Position numbers and translations under genes: made by a program
Notes under the pieces: generated by a model
What the model was told of the DNA's origin: nothing
The model's database searches: none
Seen by the model: only the letters and a program-made list of their open reading frames with translations
Part shown: positions 2,140 to 49,343 of the stretch, one piece after another
How positions within the stretch are numbered: position 1 is the first letter of the stretch
Layout of the letters: each line of letters starts with the position of its first letter
From: a virus
Lineage: Duplodnaviria; Heunggongvirae; Uroviricota; Caudoviricetes
Direction: 5' to 3' (one strand)
Length of the DNA stretch: 64,000 nt
IMG/VR virus record: IMGVR_UViG_3300014208_000030
Coordinates: 40,076-104,075 of that record

Positions 2140-3121
2140 ATTTTTCTTCTTTCCATGCCCTATTATAATCATTCCCCGTACTTGAAAAAAAATCATGTAA
2201 TGTTGAACTTTCCAAATCTTTATAAAACCAAGTTTTAATTGGATTCCAGGTTGGTTTGAAAATTGATTTATAGCTCAAATTAATCAAACATTCATCCAAT
2301 CTTGATTCAACAAAATGAATTAATTGTTTAGAAGAAGTTCCTGGAATTGAACCCTTTTCGAATATTTTACCGATAATCACAGTTTCATGTTCAAGAATAA
2401 CCTTTGCAGTATCTTCTAATTCTTGCCTCAATAAGATTAATTCAGCTTCAGTTATTGCTCCATCTGCAATAGCTTCGGCTAATAATGTTCTGAATAACCA
2501 AGCTCCAGCTTTTGAATGTAAAGTTTCATCGATAGCTGAGAAATTAATTCCGGCATTAACATTAATAAGTTTATTTTTACCAACATTATTGAAATGCTTC
2601 AAAAAAGCGAAGCTTGAATAAAGAATAGCTCCTTCAATCATCGAAAAAATGCCAACAGATTTTAAAATATCATAAACTGTATCGCGTTTTGTTACTCGTT
2701 TAGCAATCCAAGCCATACGATTTTTTAATACTTCATCATCCATATAACTGCTATAGAATTCATCAGTATCTAAACCCAATACCTCATTAATTTTATTATA
2801 GAATGGAGCATGAACTCCAATTTCCATGAAACTAAATGTGGTTGCCATCCGTTGAATATCTGGTCTTGGAAATACCTGCGCAACGTAATTTTGCCAATAA
2901 TCATTCCCAACCGATAATTCATAAATTGTGAATAGTTTCAAAGTAGATATTACTCCATGATATTCAGCTTCGCTGAAATTAGTTTTCATATCATGGAGGT
3001 CCTTTTGCGCATCAATTTCATCCGGGAACCATATTATTTCAGCTTGCTGTTTTGCAAATTCAATTGCCGTCTTATAATCGGTAGTATATGTACTTTTAGG
3101 TGTTAATATGCGTATAGCCAT
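2129..3121 (-). CDS. nrdB: Ribonucleotide reductase class Ia beta subunit
   Basis: W.PDEID...EIGVHAPFY...EGAILYSSF...DETLH diiron-centre motifs. Confidence 0.93.
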   Translation of the reverse strand: MAIRILTPKSTYTTDYKTAIEFAKQQAEIIWFPDEIDAQKDLHDMKTNFSEAEYHGVISTLKLFTIYELSVGNDYWQNYVAQVFPRPDIQRMATTFSFMEIGVHAPFYNKINEVLGLDTDEFYSSYMDDEVLKNRMAWIAKRVTKRDTVYDILKSVGIFSMIEGAILYSSFAFLKHFNNVGKNKLINVNAGINFSAIDETLHSKAGAWLFRTLLAEAIADGAITEAELILLRQELEDTAKVILEHETVIIGKIFEKGSIPGTSSKQLIHFVESRLDECLINLSYKSIFKPTWNPIKTWFYKDLESSTLHDFFSSTGNDYNRAWKEEKFIW

Positions 3122-3160
3122 TAGGTTCCTTATCGTGCTGGGTTAATAAAATGGTTGGTA

Positions 3161-3340
3161 TTACGAGAGCAGCCCGATAAGAACGAGGACAAATGCAATG
3201 ATTCCAACAATAGTTATTACATTACTGATATTCTGTACTTCAGTTGGCACAGTATCTTCGGTACAATCTCGCACCATGCTTTCTGCTTGTAATTTATGTA
3301 GTGCTGCTTGTGCTTTTCTGTTCTTGTTTGATAATTTCAT
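3161..3340 (-). CDS. 59-aa protein with C-terminal transmembrane helix
   Basis: Manual translation MKLSNKNRK...VITIVGIIAFVLVLIGLLS*; fills the gap between thyX and nrdB. Confidence 0.55.
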   Translation of the reverse strand: MKLSNKNRKAQAALHKLQAESMVRDCTEDTVPTEVQNISNVITIVGIIAFVLVLIGLLS

Positions 3341-3355
3341 TATATAGTCCTGTAA

Positions 3356-4174
3356 TTAAATTTTGGTTACTTCGTTATGTTCAATATAAAATCGATATGA
3401 CTTCCATGCACGAACGTTAAAAAAGAATGCATCAGTTCTTGCCGGTACTAATTGGTGTTCACTAGGACTGGCATGCTTAGGATCACTACCGACAAGAATG
3501 TCGTGCAGCTTCATATCATTCTCAAGTGATGGTGCCTTTTTATCGTGGGTCAGATAAGAAACTCTGGCACATCTGGCGGTAGAAAACTTGATGCAGTCCA
3601 ATAAGCTAAACTCTTTGCGCTCATCTTCGGTCACATAGGGTAGATGCCACTCGCCATTAGCAAGGTATTTAGGCACACTTTCATCGATCGCATCGCCCAT
3701 GATTTCTGCCAGTTTTTTAAATTCTGGCTGAGCCATTTCATGATTGCGCAAGGCAAAGAAATTATCCCACTCGGTGCTGGTGATCACAGTGTGTGCCCAG
3801 CACCAAGGTTCGAGCAGCCGATTCCCAATCTGCTTATGCAGCCCAAGGCCGTATAATGCCAGAGCAAAGCCACAGGCAAATTTTGATGCCAGTACCCAAG
3901 TCTGTGTTGCTAACCACTTGCCCATGCCGGTTAGTTCCTCGGCTGCTTGCATGCCGGATTTATTTTTACCCCAGTATACCGGAATGACCGGTCGATTCCA
4001 TACTTGCTCGATCATCTTCATGATCGGAATTGCCCGTGAGCTCGATGTGGACCTGCTGAACATCCGGTGCGTATTTGTTTCGGCCAGAATGAATCTAGGA
4101 TAGCAAATAGCAATGGTTATTGCCCTGATCCCAAACTTGTTTACACTATCTTCAATTACTTTCGCGCTATACAT
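3356..4174 (-). CDS. thyX: Flavin-dependent thymidylate synthase
   Basis: ETNTHRMFSRSTSSSRAIP (ThyX motif variant), FFALR...AQPE, HASPSEH. Confidence 0.85.
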   Translation of the reverse strand: MYSAKVIEDSVNKFGIRAITIAICYPRFILAETNTHRMFSRSTSSSRAIPIMKMIEQVWNRPVIPVYWGKNKSGMQAAEELTGMGKWLATQTWVLASKFACGFALALYGLGLHKQIGNRLLEPWCWAHTVITSTEWDNFFALRNHEMAQPEFKKLAEIMGDAIDESVPKYLANGEWHLPYVTEDERKEFSLLDCIKFSTARCARVSYLTHDKKAPSLENDMKLHDILVGSDPKHASPSEHQLVPARTDAFFFNVRAWKSYRFYIEHNEVTKI

Positions 4175-4191
4175 AATTTCCTTTGGTTGAT

Positions 4192-5172
4192 TTAAAAAGT
4201 TGTTGGCATTTTACTGGTATGTTGCCTCGCGCTGATCAGCCTATCGGCAAACATCGAATTCGAAGACATTGGTCGGGCTGTCTTCAAAGCATCCTTACCG
4301 GAATGCTCAATGACCAGATTGACCAGATACCCAAACCCAATTTTCTTGCGCCGACTGCAGCGCCACTGCATTCGGCAGTTGTTTTTTCTGTGGCTCCGAA
4401 TAACACTGCTAAGTTCAGTGAATTCTGCTTCGCTGTATCCAGAATCCTGCATTGCTGAGCCGATTTTCCACCATTCTGAGTATTCTATCTCCCGAAGACT
4501 ATGCAGCTCAGATAATACTTTGGCCTTGAACTCCACTGAGGGTGGCTCTCGTGCTGTGTCCGGTGTGTAAATTTCTTCGATCTCAGCCTCAAACGCCATC
4601 AGGTCGATAGATTGGCCTTTGTTATGGTAAAACTCCGCCCTAGTGAGCCCAGCTTGGCTACAAGAGGGAACATAGAAGCCTCTGCTCTGCGATAATGTTG
4701 TCTGATCATGGCACCCAATGAATTCTCTAATGGCTGCTCTGCGTTCGAGAAAATCTTCATTGGATACCGCCTCGACCAACTTAAAGAAAATCCTGAAGCA
4801 ATCGTATGGCTTTTCTTCTGATTGATGATTAAATGTCGTATACAGAACGTATTCATAATCAGCGAAGCGCACTTTTGCATCGGCAATAGTCATCTGCCCG
4901 TCAATATCAACAGGAATAGCATGCCACGCTTTTACGTTGTCACTACACCGGCGAACCTTACCGGAATCAGTGAATTCTGCCGCCTCATCTTCGCTAACAT
5001 ATTCTACCGGAGATATCAGCAAGGCTGAATTCTTGTCTGGCACTATTTGTACTTTGGATAATCGTTTGCAGAAATTTTCCCAACTGTAGGTCTTCCTGTT
5101 TCTTGGAAGAATTTCATTATTGAATATGCTTTCTAGCAGTGTAACTTGCATCGAATGCAACCTCCTATTCAC
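4192..5172 (-). CDS. AEP-superfamily primase-like protein with PriCT-2-like C-terminus
   Basis: PVDID, YTTFNH, FRIFF, D..LSQSRGFYVP and YSEWWKIGSAM motifs. Confidence 0.6.
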   Translation of the reverse strand: MNRRLHSMQVTLLESIFNNEILPRNRKTYSWENFCKRLSKVQIVPDKNSALLISPVEYVSEDEAAEFTDSGKVRRCSDNVKAWHAIPVDIDGQMTIADAKVRFADYEYVLYTTFNHQSEEKPYDCFRIFFKLVEAVSNEDFLERRAAIREFIGCHDQTTLSQSRGFYVPSCSQAGLTRAEFYHNKGQSIDLMAFEAEIEEIYTPDTAREPPSVEFKAKVLSELHSLREIEYSEWWKIGSAMQDSGYSEAEFTELSSVIRSHRKNNCRMQWRCSRRKKIGFGYLVNLVIEHSGKDALKTARPMSSNSMFADRLISARQHTSKMPTTF

Positions 5173-46149: not shown

Positions 46150-46634
46150 TCATGTATCTAGTCCCAAGATGTCTATTGAATATAGCTCAGTATTACCATC
46201 TAGGAGTACTGCTGGGCCGACATACGATGATGCTTTATATTTTTTATGCAAAGCAAGTTCTATGCCATACGCTGACTGAGCATCTTTCTGTTTTTCTGAC
46301 TTGAGGATGGTAATAATACAATTTTTAGTGCGCTTAGATTCTTTTATGCCTAACAGTCCGACTACCCTATTGTTGATGTTAGTTGTGACGCCAAGTTTAT
46401 ATAGTGGTGTTGGATGCTTTGGTGATTCTATTTTCAGATAATATATCCATACCTCATTACCTGCTGATCGTGCAGCATTGATCTTGCTGAGGTTATTCGC
46501 GCCGTGTGCATATGACGCACCTACTATATATTTTAGTTTTATTCCGATATTATACAGTTTCTATTTTGTAACTTTAATACGGCTAATGATGGGTATGCAT
46601 TTATTGCTTTCACGATATCGGTATAGTATGACAT
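46150..46634 (-). pseudogene. Frameshifted T5orf172/GIY-YIG-like nuclease gene
   Basis: RBS+ATG frame stops at codon 32; the -1 frame continues IYYLKIES...LYKLGVTT...E.ALHKKY...DGNTE.Y with no start codon; span 485 nt = 3n+2. Confidence 0.7.
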
Positions 46635-46674
46635 TGGTATCCTTTAATTATATATTATACTGTGTATTCTTACA

Positions 46675-46927
46675 GCGCTTCGCGCAGTTCATGTATTATT
46701 TTAAATAACAACATATTATGACTGGTGCGTAGCACCGCCGGAGGCTTTCTATAACCACTGTTATAACAGTTACTATAAAAGCTTTTATAAAAATATTTAT
46801 TGACCCTTTCGCCTTCGGCTTCATGGGTGTACGGGCGACAAGCTGAAGCTTGCTGCCCTTATGGTTCATGAATTGTTTTTAAATAAGAAAAGCCATTAAT
46901 GTACTGGTGCGTAGCACCGCCGAAGGC
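46675..46927. repeat. Cluster of GNA-triloop mini-hairpins and a 20-bp direct repeat in AT-rich DNA (candidate origin)
   Basis: ACTGGTGCGTAGCACCGCCG at 46721 and 46903; GCGC-TTC-GCGC at 46675, GCC-TTC-GGC at 46811, GCC-GGA-GGC at 46737, GCC-GAA-GGC at 46919. Confidence 0.75.
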
Positions 46928-47049
46928 CATAAAGATATTTTTTAAAAAAGCTTTTTATAAAAGATTTTAAAAAAGACAAGAGAAAGATTTTGCCTTGCAG
47001 ACAAAATCTTATTACAGAAAAGACTGTCGCAAGATTATCCTAGAAAACC

Positions 47050-47455
47050 ATTACTGGTAGGTCGGGTTATGCTGTGACCTTTACATCTGTTTGCTGAATT
47101 CATAACGGCACCATATACAAAAAGGATACATTCACTGTATATGGTTGTACTAACAAGAGTACATCCTGAAGAGTTTGTTCATGGGAATTAACAAATGCTG
47201 CTCTACTCAGCATTGAATCAAAAGATTCCGCGGGGTGCATGCTCAACACTACAGGAGGTATACCTCCATCGTTGGTGACTCTAACCGCCATACTAGGCTT
47301 CGTTAAAGGTGCGTTCTTGCCACCGAATTATAGACTTGACAGTCTCATACTCAAATTAATATAATGAGCTTCAGCAGACGTTTTTGCGTACATCCTGTAC
47401 ACTGATACGATTTGACTAACCGATTATGCTAACACATAATATTGATCTTGTCTAC
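47050..47455 (-). ncRNA. Candidate large structured RNA downstream of a late promoter
   Basis: TATAAATA (minus) at 47459-47466; at least 8 local stems plus a long-range closing helix; no long ORF; family not identified. Confidence 0.45.
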
Positions 47456-47522
47456 GGGTATTTATAGTTATAAGTTTCATAGAAAATATTCTCCTCAACT
47501 CTAAACGCTTCATCACAAGTTG

Positions 47523-48665
47523 CTAGGCCGCTAACAGCGACTCAGTCTTACATTTGCTCTGCGTTCGTATAGCACTATTAACTCGTAGTGCTTCTTCTAA
47601 AATATTAATGCTAGCATTCAGGTCGCGATCCATCTCATGTCCGCAGTCCTCGCATATAAACACTCGGTATTCTTTGGGTGGCTCTATATTTTTATGCTCA
47701 CAACAAGGACATATCTTGCTTGATGCAAACCACCTATCAACCTTGACGACTTCTTTTCCATACCATGCCGCCTTATAGCGCAATACCCTATAAAATTCAC
47801 CGAATGCAGCATCGCCGATTGATTTTGCCAGCTTGTGGTTCTTCACCATACCGGCAACATTTAAATCCTCAATTCCTATAAAATCATACCCATCGACTAT
47901 ATTAGTCGTTACGTTATGGATAAAATCTTTTCGTCTGTTTGCAATGCCTAAGTGTATTCGTGCTACTTTTAACTTTGCTTTCTTACGCCTAACACTGCCT
48001 TTCTTCTTACGTGACAAATTTCTTTGTGCTTTTTTTAATTTCGCTTGGCTCTCACGAAAATATTTTGGATTTTCTACAGTAGTTCCATCACTGCCAGTTA
48101 AAAATACATTAACACCAACATCAATGCCTAGGGTTAATCCGGTTTTGGGTTTTTGCGCAACTTCACATTCGACTAAAACCGACGCAAAGAACTGGTTGCA
48201 GCAATTTTTGGAGACTGTTACTGACATGAACTTACACCCAGTTGGTGGCTCTCGATCCATAACTAGCTTTACGTTGCCGATCTTTTCGAGTCTAATTGAG
48301 CCACTATTCAATCTAAATTTTTGGTTTGGTAATCTATAACTTTGCCGCCCATCCCGTTTTTTGAATGCTGGTCTACCAATCTTCTTTTTGCGGCTCTTAG
48401 AAAAGTAGTTCTTTTTGAATGCCTTAAAATCTATTTCTTTCTGCTGAACTGCGGCAGCACTAACTTCACCCATCCAAGGTAATTGTTTTCTTAACTCAGT
48501 AGATGTGAGTGCTTTAATCTGTTCGGTTGAATCCTTATCAAACTTATTGAAGACTTCTACGTTGTGATTCCAAAGTACGCGCACACACCCGAACGTCTTA
48601 TTCAGCAAGGTTTCCTGCTGATCCGTTGGGCATAGTCTGTATTTGAACGCTCTAAGTATTGTCAT
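47523..48665 (-). CDS. tnpB: TnpB RNA-guided endonuclease
   Basis: AFKYRL.P, GIDVG, IEDL.V, SSKICPCC..C..CG..MDRD.NA; RuvC D/E/D residues intact. Confidence 0.95.
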   Translation of the reverse strand: MTILRAFKYRLCPTDQQETLLNKTFGCVRVLWNHNVEVFNKFDKDSTEQIKALTSTELRKQLPWMGEVSAAAVQQKEIDFKAFKKNYFSKSRKKKIGRPAFKKRDGRQSYRLPNQKFRLNSGSIRLEKIGNVKLVMDREPPTGCKFMSVTVSKNCCNQFFASVLVECEVAQKPKTGLTLGIDVGVNVFLTGSDGTTVENPKYFRESQAKLKKAQRNLSRKKKGSVRRKKAKLKVARIHLGIANRRKDFIHNVTTNIVDGYDFIGIEDLNVAGMVKNHKLAKSIGDAAFGEFYRVLRYKAAWYGKEVVKVDRWFASSKICPCCEHKNIEPPKEYRVFICEDCGHEMDRDLNASINILEEALRVNSAIRTQSKCKTESLLAA

Positions 48666-48910
48666 CGTATTTTAGTTGTTTGATTAATTGTTCGGTTCTT
48701 CTTTTACTTCTACGCCTACCGTAAAGTCTTGTTCTCTGATGATGAAACTCTCGTGTAAACAGCTATTTCTTCATTAGTCAACTACTGCGCATCAATTATG
48801 GCGGTACCATCCGGTAACTTTCTGGCATTAGGAATAAGGCCATCATTGTAGTGGTTCCATGCTGTGCTATAAGTAACACCAATCTTATTTGCATATTTAG
48901 ATAATTTCAT
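48652..48910 (-). pseudogene. tnpA: IS607 TnpA serine transposase remnant
   Basis: MerR-like MKLSKYA..IGVTY.TAW, in-frame TAG at codon 43, VYTRVSS, then a frameshifted jump to RLYGRRRSKRRTEQLI (internal deletion). Confidence 0.85.
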
Positions 48911-49034
48911 GAGTAATAGTTGTTATCGAAGAATATTATACTAACTGACATGGGGTCTGTTTTGCAGAGTTCAATACCACTTGACAAAATAAATAATTTC
49001 TGTATACTGAACATCCCAACCACAGGAGAAGATC

Positions 49035-49343
49035 ATGGAAGCAACAACAGAAAGAATAGTCCGGTATGTCGAGTCGGCAGCACATGTCGGTGTGTCTACT
49101 ATTGCCAGAATATACGGCAACGATACCGATGCATTTCACCATGCCGATATTGAGCAGTGGCGTCGAGGCCAACCACATCATATATTGGTGATGCTATTCA
49201 ATGAGGATGGCATCATAGTCGATGAGCCGCTTATGGCAAAACATTTCAAAGACACCTATGTACTGGTGCCGGTCGATAACGAAAATACTGAAACACCAAT
49301 ACATCTGGACAATTTAACCAGAAAATTCGTAATAGGCGATTGA
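49035..49343 (+). CDS. Early hypothetical protein
   Basis: TTGACA-16-TATACT promoter near 48982-49009; GGAG RBS. Confidence 0.6.
   Translation: MEATTERIVRYVESAAHVGVSTIARIYGNDTDAFHHADIEQWRRGQPHHILVMLFNEDGIIVDEPLMAKHFKDTYVLVPVDNENTETPIHLDNLTRKFVIGD

Follow-up and report, generated by a model that had tools for sequence, protein, structure and literature searches.

The window analysed here is a 64,000-nt stretch of a 168-kb virus record from an uncultured T4-like phage. Beside a tnpB gene it contains an interval, 47050-47480, which an initial annotation made from the sequence had described as a late-promoter-driven, densely structured non-coding element. The locus raised the question of which part of this interval is an RNA gene, on which strand and within which limits, and whether such a gene belongs to the adjacent transposon or stands on its own. 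The dense structure was found to be present: no ORF in it is conserved, and all the stems listed at the time occur in the sequence. The span, on the other hand, had to be redrawn. The flagged interval consists of three things, namely the end of an insertion sequence (IS; 47464-47480), a putative guide segment together with a predicted, degenerate promoter (47419-47463), and an RNA gene whose predicted limits run from 47418 to ~46975. We assign a probability of about 0.7 to the reading that the minus strand of 46975-47418 is one of two paralogous genes for a compactly folded, free-standing non-coding RNA of ~400-440 nt. The features on which this reading was built are collected in Table 1.

Table 1 Features of the RNA locus and of the neighboring IS607-type element. 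Positions refer to the window, except for copy 2, which is given in the coordinates of locus L002 of the same record.
Feature	Position	Strand	Remarks
Structured RNA gene, copy 1	46975-47418	-	~444 nt, counted from the putative start through the U tract
Structured RNA gene, copy 2	L002 1442-1848		~407 nt; paralogue in the same record
Predicted promoter of copy 1	47426-47454	-	Degenerate sigma70-type, TAGACA-17-TAGCAT, TG before the -10; 9/12 consensus match
Hairpin H1	47386-47402	-	Loop AGGAU (AGGAA in copy 2); 2 compensatory pairs
Long-range closing helix	47375-47381 with 47083-47089	-	7 contiguous pairs in both copies; one A-U to G-U
Expansion, copy 1 only	47319-47374	-	Two hairpins; single small hairpin in copy 2 (alignment A3, columns 55-110)
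Predicted antisense promoter	47336-47365	+	Sigma70 consensus TTGACA-18-TATAAT, 12/12; inside the expansion
Conserved core	47193-47318	-	89% identity; four hairpin domains and conserved joining strands (alignment A5, model R1)
Hairpin H267	47146-47163	-	2 compensatory pairs
Hairpin H285	47110-47145	-	11 pairs; 3 compensatory pairs
Pseudoknot PK1, 5′ strand (H285 loop)	47123-47128	-	Pairs with 47036-47041
Pseudoknot PK1, 3′ strand	47036-47041	-	6 pairs, 3 changed on both sides
Pseudoknot PK2	47101-47106 with 47066-47071 (H350 loop)	-	6 pairs, 1 compensatory
Hairpin H350	47059-47080	-	2 compensatory pairs
Intrinsic-terminator-like hairpin	46970-47010	-	12 pairs with U-rich tail; putative RNA 3′ end
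AT-rich mini-hairpin stretch	46640-46974	-	In the duplicated module, downstream of the terminator
IS607-type element	47464-48941	-	Right end by homology stop; left end by homology to L004, L162, L164, L166
tnpB	47523-48665	-	380 aa, apparently intact; Pfam HTH_OrfB_IS605, OrfB_IS605, Cas12f1-like TNB
Decayed IS607 tnpA (serine recombinase) and IS left end	48716-48941	-	Stop codon and internal deletion
Omega-RNA (reRNA) scaffold	47464-47575	-	Overlaps the tnpB 3′ end; 10-sequence alignment A6
Putative TnpB guide segment	47444-47463	-	Flank beyond the IS right end; presumptive length
TATAAATA octamer, IS/flank junction (TAT + AAATA)	47459-47466	-	Exact match at 47466-47459

The right-hand end of the interval belongs to an IS607-type element. 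Nucleotide homology between the window and a second viral contig (L004) runs from the tnpB start to 47464 and then ends, and across the 10 IS relatives homology likewise ceases at 47464; the terminal AACTAT of the scaffold is kept in 9 of the 10 sequences, which diverge beyond it. Nested conserved helices were observed in the scaffold alignment (A6), with compensatory changes in 8 of the 21 predicted pairs. The stretch 47464-47575 is assigned, from its sequence features, to the TnpB omega-RNA of the element: it begins within the 3′ end of tnpB, its scaffold is conserved among relatives and includes helices that covary, and its other end coincides with the transposon boundary. For ISDra2 it has been established that TnpB binds the omega-RNA, which directs TAM-dependent cleavage of DNA, and that the last ~16 nt of the reRNA are derived from the sequence next to the right end and serve as the guide (PMC8612924). 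The likeness of the locus to TnpB omega-RNAs (ISDra2: PMC8612924; IS607: bioRxiv 10.1101/2023.11.20.567912) is confined to 47464-47575, whereas the ~400-nt RNA gene lies outside the transposon and is present without it.

The proposed late promoter was not supported. The octamer TATAAATA is formed where the right end of the IS (..AACTAT) meets the flanking DNA (AAATA..), and L004 reads TATGAGTC where the window has TATAAATA. When the two copies of the RNA gene were aligned, the paralogue had no equivalent octamer at this position and carried a consensus early-type promoter instead. Octamers of the same type occur 10 times in the window compared with 4.9 expected by chance, that is, about half of them by chance. 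We infer that the octamer is a by-product of the IS insertion and would at most add late read-in transcription. The 18-codon, RBS-led uORF noted in the same place does exist, but it consists of omega-RNA scaffold sequence, and its ATG is ATT in L004. The 'late promoter' and the 'uORF' would both be by-products of the insertion at this site.

The paralogue (copy 2) was found ~50 kb from copy 1, between two co-directional genes and with no tnpB or IS nearby. Both copies lie in a duplicated non-coding module (window ~46640-47420 and L002 ~1440-2200) with 80% identity, and in copy 2 the homology with the window starts directly downstream of the early promoter. For the RNA gene itself, identity ranges from ~77 to 97% by segment, with an overall divergence of ~20%. 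The copies are alike in fold, conserved core, terminator, and kind of promoter; copy 1 differs from copy 2 in its weaker promoter, in a 55-nt expansion containing an antisense consensus promoter, and in the IS607-type element located 9 nt upstream of its -35. The stretch 46881-47045, which comprises the RNA 3′ end and ~100 nt beyond it, is 97% identical between the copies compared with 77% for the RNA body, a difference that points to either recent gene conversion or very tight constraint. No protein gene common to both RNA loci is present within 9 kb, and the idea of a shared partner protein gene was discarded for this reason.

Both copies have the same RNA architecture, with nine hairpins (one of them at the 5′ end), a closing helix of 7 pairs that encloses a core of several hairpins, two pseudoknots, and a 3′ hairpin followed by a U tract; the joining strands are also conserved in sequence in both. 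The covariation described here is pairwise, since it was measured between two sequences only, both from one genome and possibly exchanging sequence. RNAalifold applied to both copies gave 96 pairs, including 15 compensatory ones. In the curated structure, all 93 pairs (100%) are formed in both copies, 16 of them changed on both sides and 4 changed on one side to a wobble pair; every substitution in the curated stems is either compensated or wobble-forming. When the 3′ partners were slid by 1-3 columns, 0-2 compensatory pairs were obtained, compared with 16 in register. To avoid circularity, a structure predicted from one copy was scored on the other copy: 12 double compensatory changes were counted where 1.9 were expected, a number reached in none of 5000 permutations, and the reverse test with the structure from the other copy yielded 8 (1 of 5000 permutations). 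When all helices able to form in both copies were enumerated, the hairpins were found again, together with two additional long-range helices, PK1 and PK2. Helices with at least 3 compensatory pairs numbered two in the real alignment and none in 200 column shuffles, and those with at least 2 numbered 7, with 0.21 expected from the 200 shuffles. The folding z-scores (-2.6 and -2.3) were only moderate. These results bear out the earlier suggestion of an unrecognised large structured phage RNA on the minus strand, with covariation between the copies and no codon-type conservation. The minus strand is the RNA strand, because at least 8 G.U pairs and no A.C pairs are interior to helices in that sense and because the promoter and the terminator agree with it.

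When the individual stems of the initial annotation were examined in copy 2, four of them were supported, three by covariation and one as invariant. Three compensatory pairs each were found in the CCATATACA/TGTATATGG and AATGCTG/CAGCATT stems and two in the TGTACT/AGTACA stem, and the GAATC/GATTC stem is invariant in both copies. The 12-bp long-range helix was reduced to the 7 contiguous pairs of the closing helix (47381-47375 with 47089-47083), its full 12 pairs not being kept, and the GGAGG/CCTCC stem is partly kept but has an A.C mismatch on the RNA strand of copy 2. AGACT/AGTCT falls inside the expansion specific to copy 1 and has no counterpart in copy 2. The palindrome ATTATG/CATAAT (47423-47440) is present but is located in the promoter spacer, outside the RNA. 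The expansion was also considered as a dispersed promoter cassette and rejected, as no other copy of it exists in the genome.

The two pseudoknots add loop-to-strand contacts to the hairpins. The 3′ strand of PK1 accounts for 3 of only 5 mismatches in the 97%-identical stretch 46881-47045. The change in the H1 loop is, moreover, complementary to the change in the H285 loop: despite the AGGAU/AGGAA difference, the H1 loop (47397-47391) is complementary to the H285 loop (47128-47123) in both copies. In the structural model, the H1 loop may represent an alternative partner to PK1 for the H285 loop and may form part of a conformational switch.

At matching positions upstream of the RNA, both copies have a predicted sigma70-type promoter. 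That of copy 2 (TTGACA-17-TATACT with an upstream TG) agrees with the consensus at 11 of 12 positions and is a typical early promoter of the phage. A terminator scan identified the 12-pair hairpin and its tail in both copies, with the same sequence in each and solely on the RNA strand; the hairpin contains a U.G pair that would be A.C on the other strand. In both copies, a promoter and a terminator (each a consensus match only) flank the RNA, as is expected for a bacterial-type sRNA gene. Judging from its weak promoter and from the 55-nt expansion with the antisense promoter, copy 1 may be expressed differently or poorly. The antisense consensus is absent from copy 2 and is not repeated in the genome. 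Its -35 and -10 are each placed in the loop of a small hairpin, and it faces the omega-RNA and tnpB in the antisense direction; before the arrival of the IS, the rightward genes at 49035 would have had in it a second promoter upstream. Palindromes occur in the spacer/-10 region of both RNA promoters (ATTATG/CATAAT at 47423-47440 and ACCACC/GGTGGT at L002 1419-1432), which fits the hairpin-in-promoter design observed elsewhere in this genome. Downstream of the terminator, the AT-rich stretch is homologous in both copies except for an 80-nt block (46801-46880), which is replaced outright in full.

The RNA was then compared with known families and with other genomes. Searching the whole window against Rfam 15 at gathering thresholds gave no match; the families covered include group I and group II introns, RNase P, tmRNA, 6S, GOLLD, ROOL, HEARO, RAGATH-18, and riboswitches, and the description of the RNA as unrecognised was upheld by this check. 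With the E-value relaxed to 10 (46400-49000 of the window and 1300-2300 of L002), the matches were at noise level, the best reaching 23.5 bits against a threshold of 65.3 bits; none fell within the copy 1 RNA, and a single weak one (S15 leader, E 1.1) fell within copy 2. ARAGORN detected no tRNA or tmRNA. Homologues of the RNA were not found by megablast and blastn in GenBank phages, by scans of JGI metagenomes and GTDB genomes, or by nhmmer in 150 fetched loci beyond the two copies. Exact and gapped searches with the core motifs in IMG/VR gave no true homologue either, and the matches returned were dismissed as chance matches in the coding DNA of unrelated phages. A covariance model of the core (R1) detected only the two copies in the phage genome; with the same model, the RNA was found neither in 156 Methylococcales genomes nor in 40 viral records, among them the closest T4-like genomes (capsid proteins only 54-59% identical). 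The phage is deep-branching, its capsid protein being at most 59% identical to anything in IMG/VR. Regarding the neighbors of copy 2, no relative of the esterase upstream was found. The 125-aa ORF downstream (L002 2209-2586) has a conserved C-terminal module (..TLKSSDATRKIEFSTDGG..TSATML..TG..D) that is present in many environmental phage contigs, and no Pfam or PHROG family was assigned to it.

Four other explanations of the structured stretch were weighed against an independent RNA gene. As the RNA follows tnpB immediately and is on the same strand, it could be the RNA part of the IS607/TnpB system, either an extended omega-RNA or an IStron intron, and IS607 elements with group I introns are known (bioRxiv 10.1101/2023.11.20.567912). 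This membership is contradicted by the data, and we give it next to no weight. Homology among the 10 IS relatives ends at 47464 after the conserved AACTAT, copy 2 has no IS although it has the RNA, and tnpB is present in a single copy in the genome; an IStron is further opposed by the lack of any group I intron (RF00028) or RAGATH-18 match at E-values up to 10 and by the position of the IS in an intergenic region with divergent promoters. The RNA gene is independent of the IS607-type TnpB element: the right end of the IS at 47464 stops 9 nt upstream of the -35, and copy 2 lacks the IS. Scarcely more credible is a protein-coding gene in decay, or a structure existing only at the DNA level (a cruciform or single-strand hairpins). 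Short ORFs of 63-75 codons do occur, and the palindromes would form in DNA too. However, no reading frame is common to both copies, the short ORFs differ between them, and the 63-aa ORF has no family match; substitutions between the copies are distributed over the codon positions as 27/29/28, without periodicity, and the indels (6, 3, 10, 29, 1, 1, 3, 1, 5, and 1 nt) are mostly not multiples of three. Since codon periodicity is lacking, indels shift the frame, and the ORFs differ, a decayed protein gene is excluded for 46975-47418 as far as the comparison of the two sequences can tell. Pseudoknots between loops and strands, together with G.U pairs restricted to one strand, fit RNA and not duplex DNA.

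The terminator at the end of the fold and the same-strand genes that follow in both copies would also suit a cis-acting leader or attenuator, in which the fold senses a signal and sets the read-through past the terminator, the H285 loop pairing alternately with the H1 loop and with the PK1 3′ strand. The complementarity of the H285 loop to two alternative partners, both changed in step, and the extension of the duplicated module to the start codon of the next gene are in line with such a device. We nevertheless regard it as unlikely: between the terminator and the next gene lie ~330-370 nt of AT-rich DNA, in which further promoter-like sites occur, the genes that follow the two copies are unrelated to each other, no match to a riboswitch or leader family was obtained, and in 45 other loci that encode homologues of the 125-aa protein no such RNA precedes the gene (the closest contig includes only 33 nt upstream of it). 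Somewhat less probable again is a replication-origin transcript, that is, a structured pre-primer that, like ColE1 RNA II or the R-loops at T4 origins, would hybridise within the downstream AT-rich DNA with its hairpins. ColE1 RNA II, with its antisense RNA I, is a structured RNA of a few hundred nt located upstream of an AT-rich region, with an antisense promoter near its 5′ end. The present RNA is similar in size and is likewise followed by AT-rich DNA (35% G+C after the promoter), and copy 1, but not copy 2, has an antisense promoter near the RNA 5′ end that is reminiscent of RNA I. In addition, the two copies, 50 kb apart, each lie at a minimum of the cumulative GC skew, one local and one global (G000 ~86-88 kb and ~132-138 kb), but these minima do not show an origin because they coincide with changes in gene orientation and are confounded with them. 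In contrast to ColE1, a terminator hairpin and U tract stand between the fold and the AT-rich stretch. The two conserved pseudoknots argue for a folded free RNA over a hybrid; the R-loops of T4 origins are not known to need a conserved tertiary fold. The preferred reading is still that of a free-standing RNA gene in two copies.

If the RNA is a gene product in its own right, host RNA polymerase would transcribe it early in infection from its own sigma70-type promoter, whose strength, to judge from the consensus matches, would be high in copy 2 and reduced in copy 1. Transcription would stop at the intrinsic terminator, and the RNA would act in trans through its tertiary fold. Tentatively, a protein-binding scaffold or decoy used during host takeover appears to be the most likely functional class, with a ribozyme or a self-assembling RNA as further possibilities. 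A bolder proposal, which we put forward with considerable doubt, is a new class of phage RNA acting via its tertiary fold (ribozyme, self-assembling, or ligand- or protein-sensing), in which the H285 loop would act as a built-in switch, with either the H1 loop or the PK1 3′ strand as its partner, and which would be deployed early, for example, against host defence or to seize a host RNA-binding protein. Two other candidate functions were rejected. An antisense regulator of phage mRNAs was set aside because complementarity to the phage genome extends to ~12 nt at most, which resembles chance, and a CsrA-type sponge because the RNA shows no enrichment of GGA motifs, two of which serve as partners in pseudoknots.

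In kind, the RNA most resembles the large ornate phage-associated RNAs, although it appears as a family of its own. GOLLD and ROOL, both Rfam families, are large ornate RNAs linked to phages and prophages, with cryo-EM work in bioRxiv 10.1101/2024.12.08.627333. Like them, the RNA is long, multi-helical, pseudoknotted, and phage-carried, has expression signals of its own, and lacks a known biochemical role; it matches neither of them in sequence or in structure, is shorter (~400-440 nt), and has so far been encountered in one T4-like phage, as two paralogues. The presence of two diverged, fully compensated copies in a virulent T4-like phage suggests an RNA-based infection function without a described T4 counterpart. 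Large RNAs whose tertiary folds are conserved are rare, and the known ones (the ribosome, RNase P, introns, riboswitches, OLE, GOLLD, and ROOL) have repeatedly revealed new biochemistry.

The genome of this T4-like phage provides, beside copy 1, a clean natural case of an IS607-type TnpB element, with precisely defined ends and inserted in an intergenic region with divergent promoters. Its putative guide would target the allele without the IS, a point of relevance to transposon homing between phages. Among the relatives of this TnpB, the L004 protein is 81% identical and the others in IMG/VR are 51-55% identical; ten elements in GTDB genomes, mostly Methylococcales/Methylococcaceae bins, encode proteins with 68-74% identity, which hints that the phage may infect a Methylococcales methanotroph and may have gained the IS there. 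The omega-RNA scaffold is shared by the GTDB bins L160-L169, nearly all of them Methylococcales or Methylococcaceae. L004 (IMG/VR UViG_3300033121_000387; element at 2963-4203) is a viral contig that carries the same IS at an unrelated insertion site and with tnpA wholly deleted, and this points to a probable TnpB-only derivative circulating among phages.
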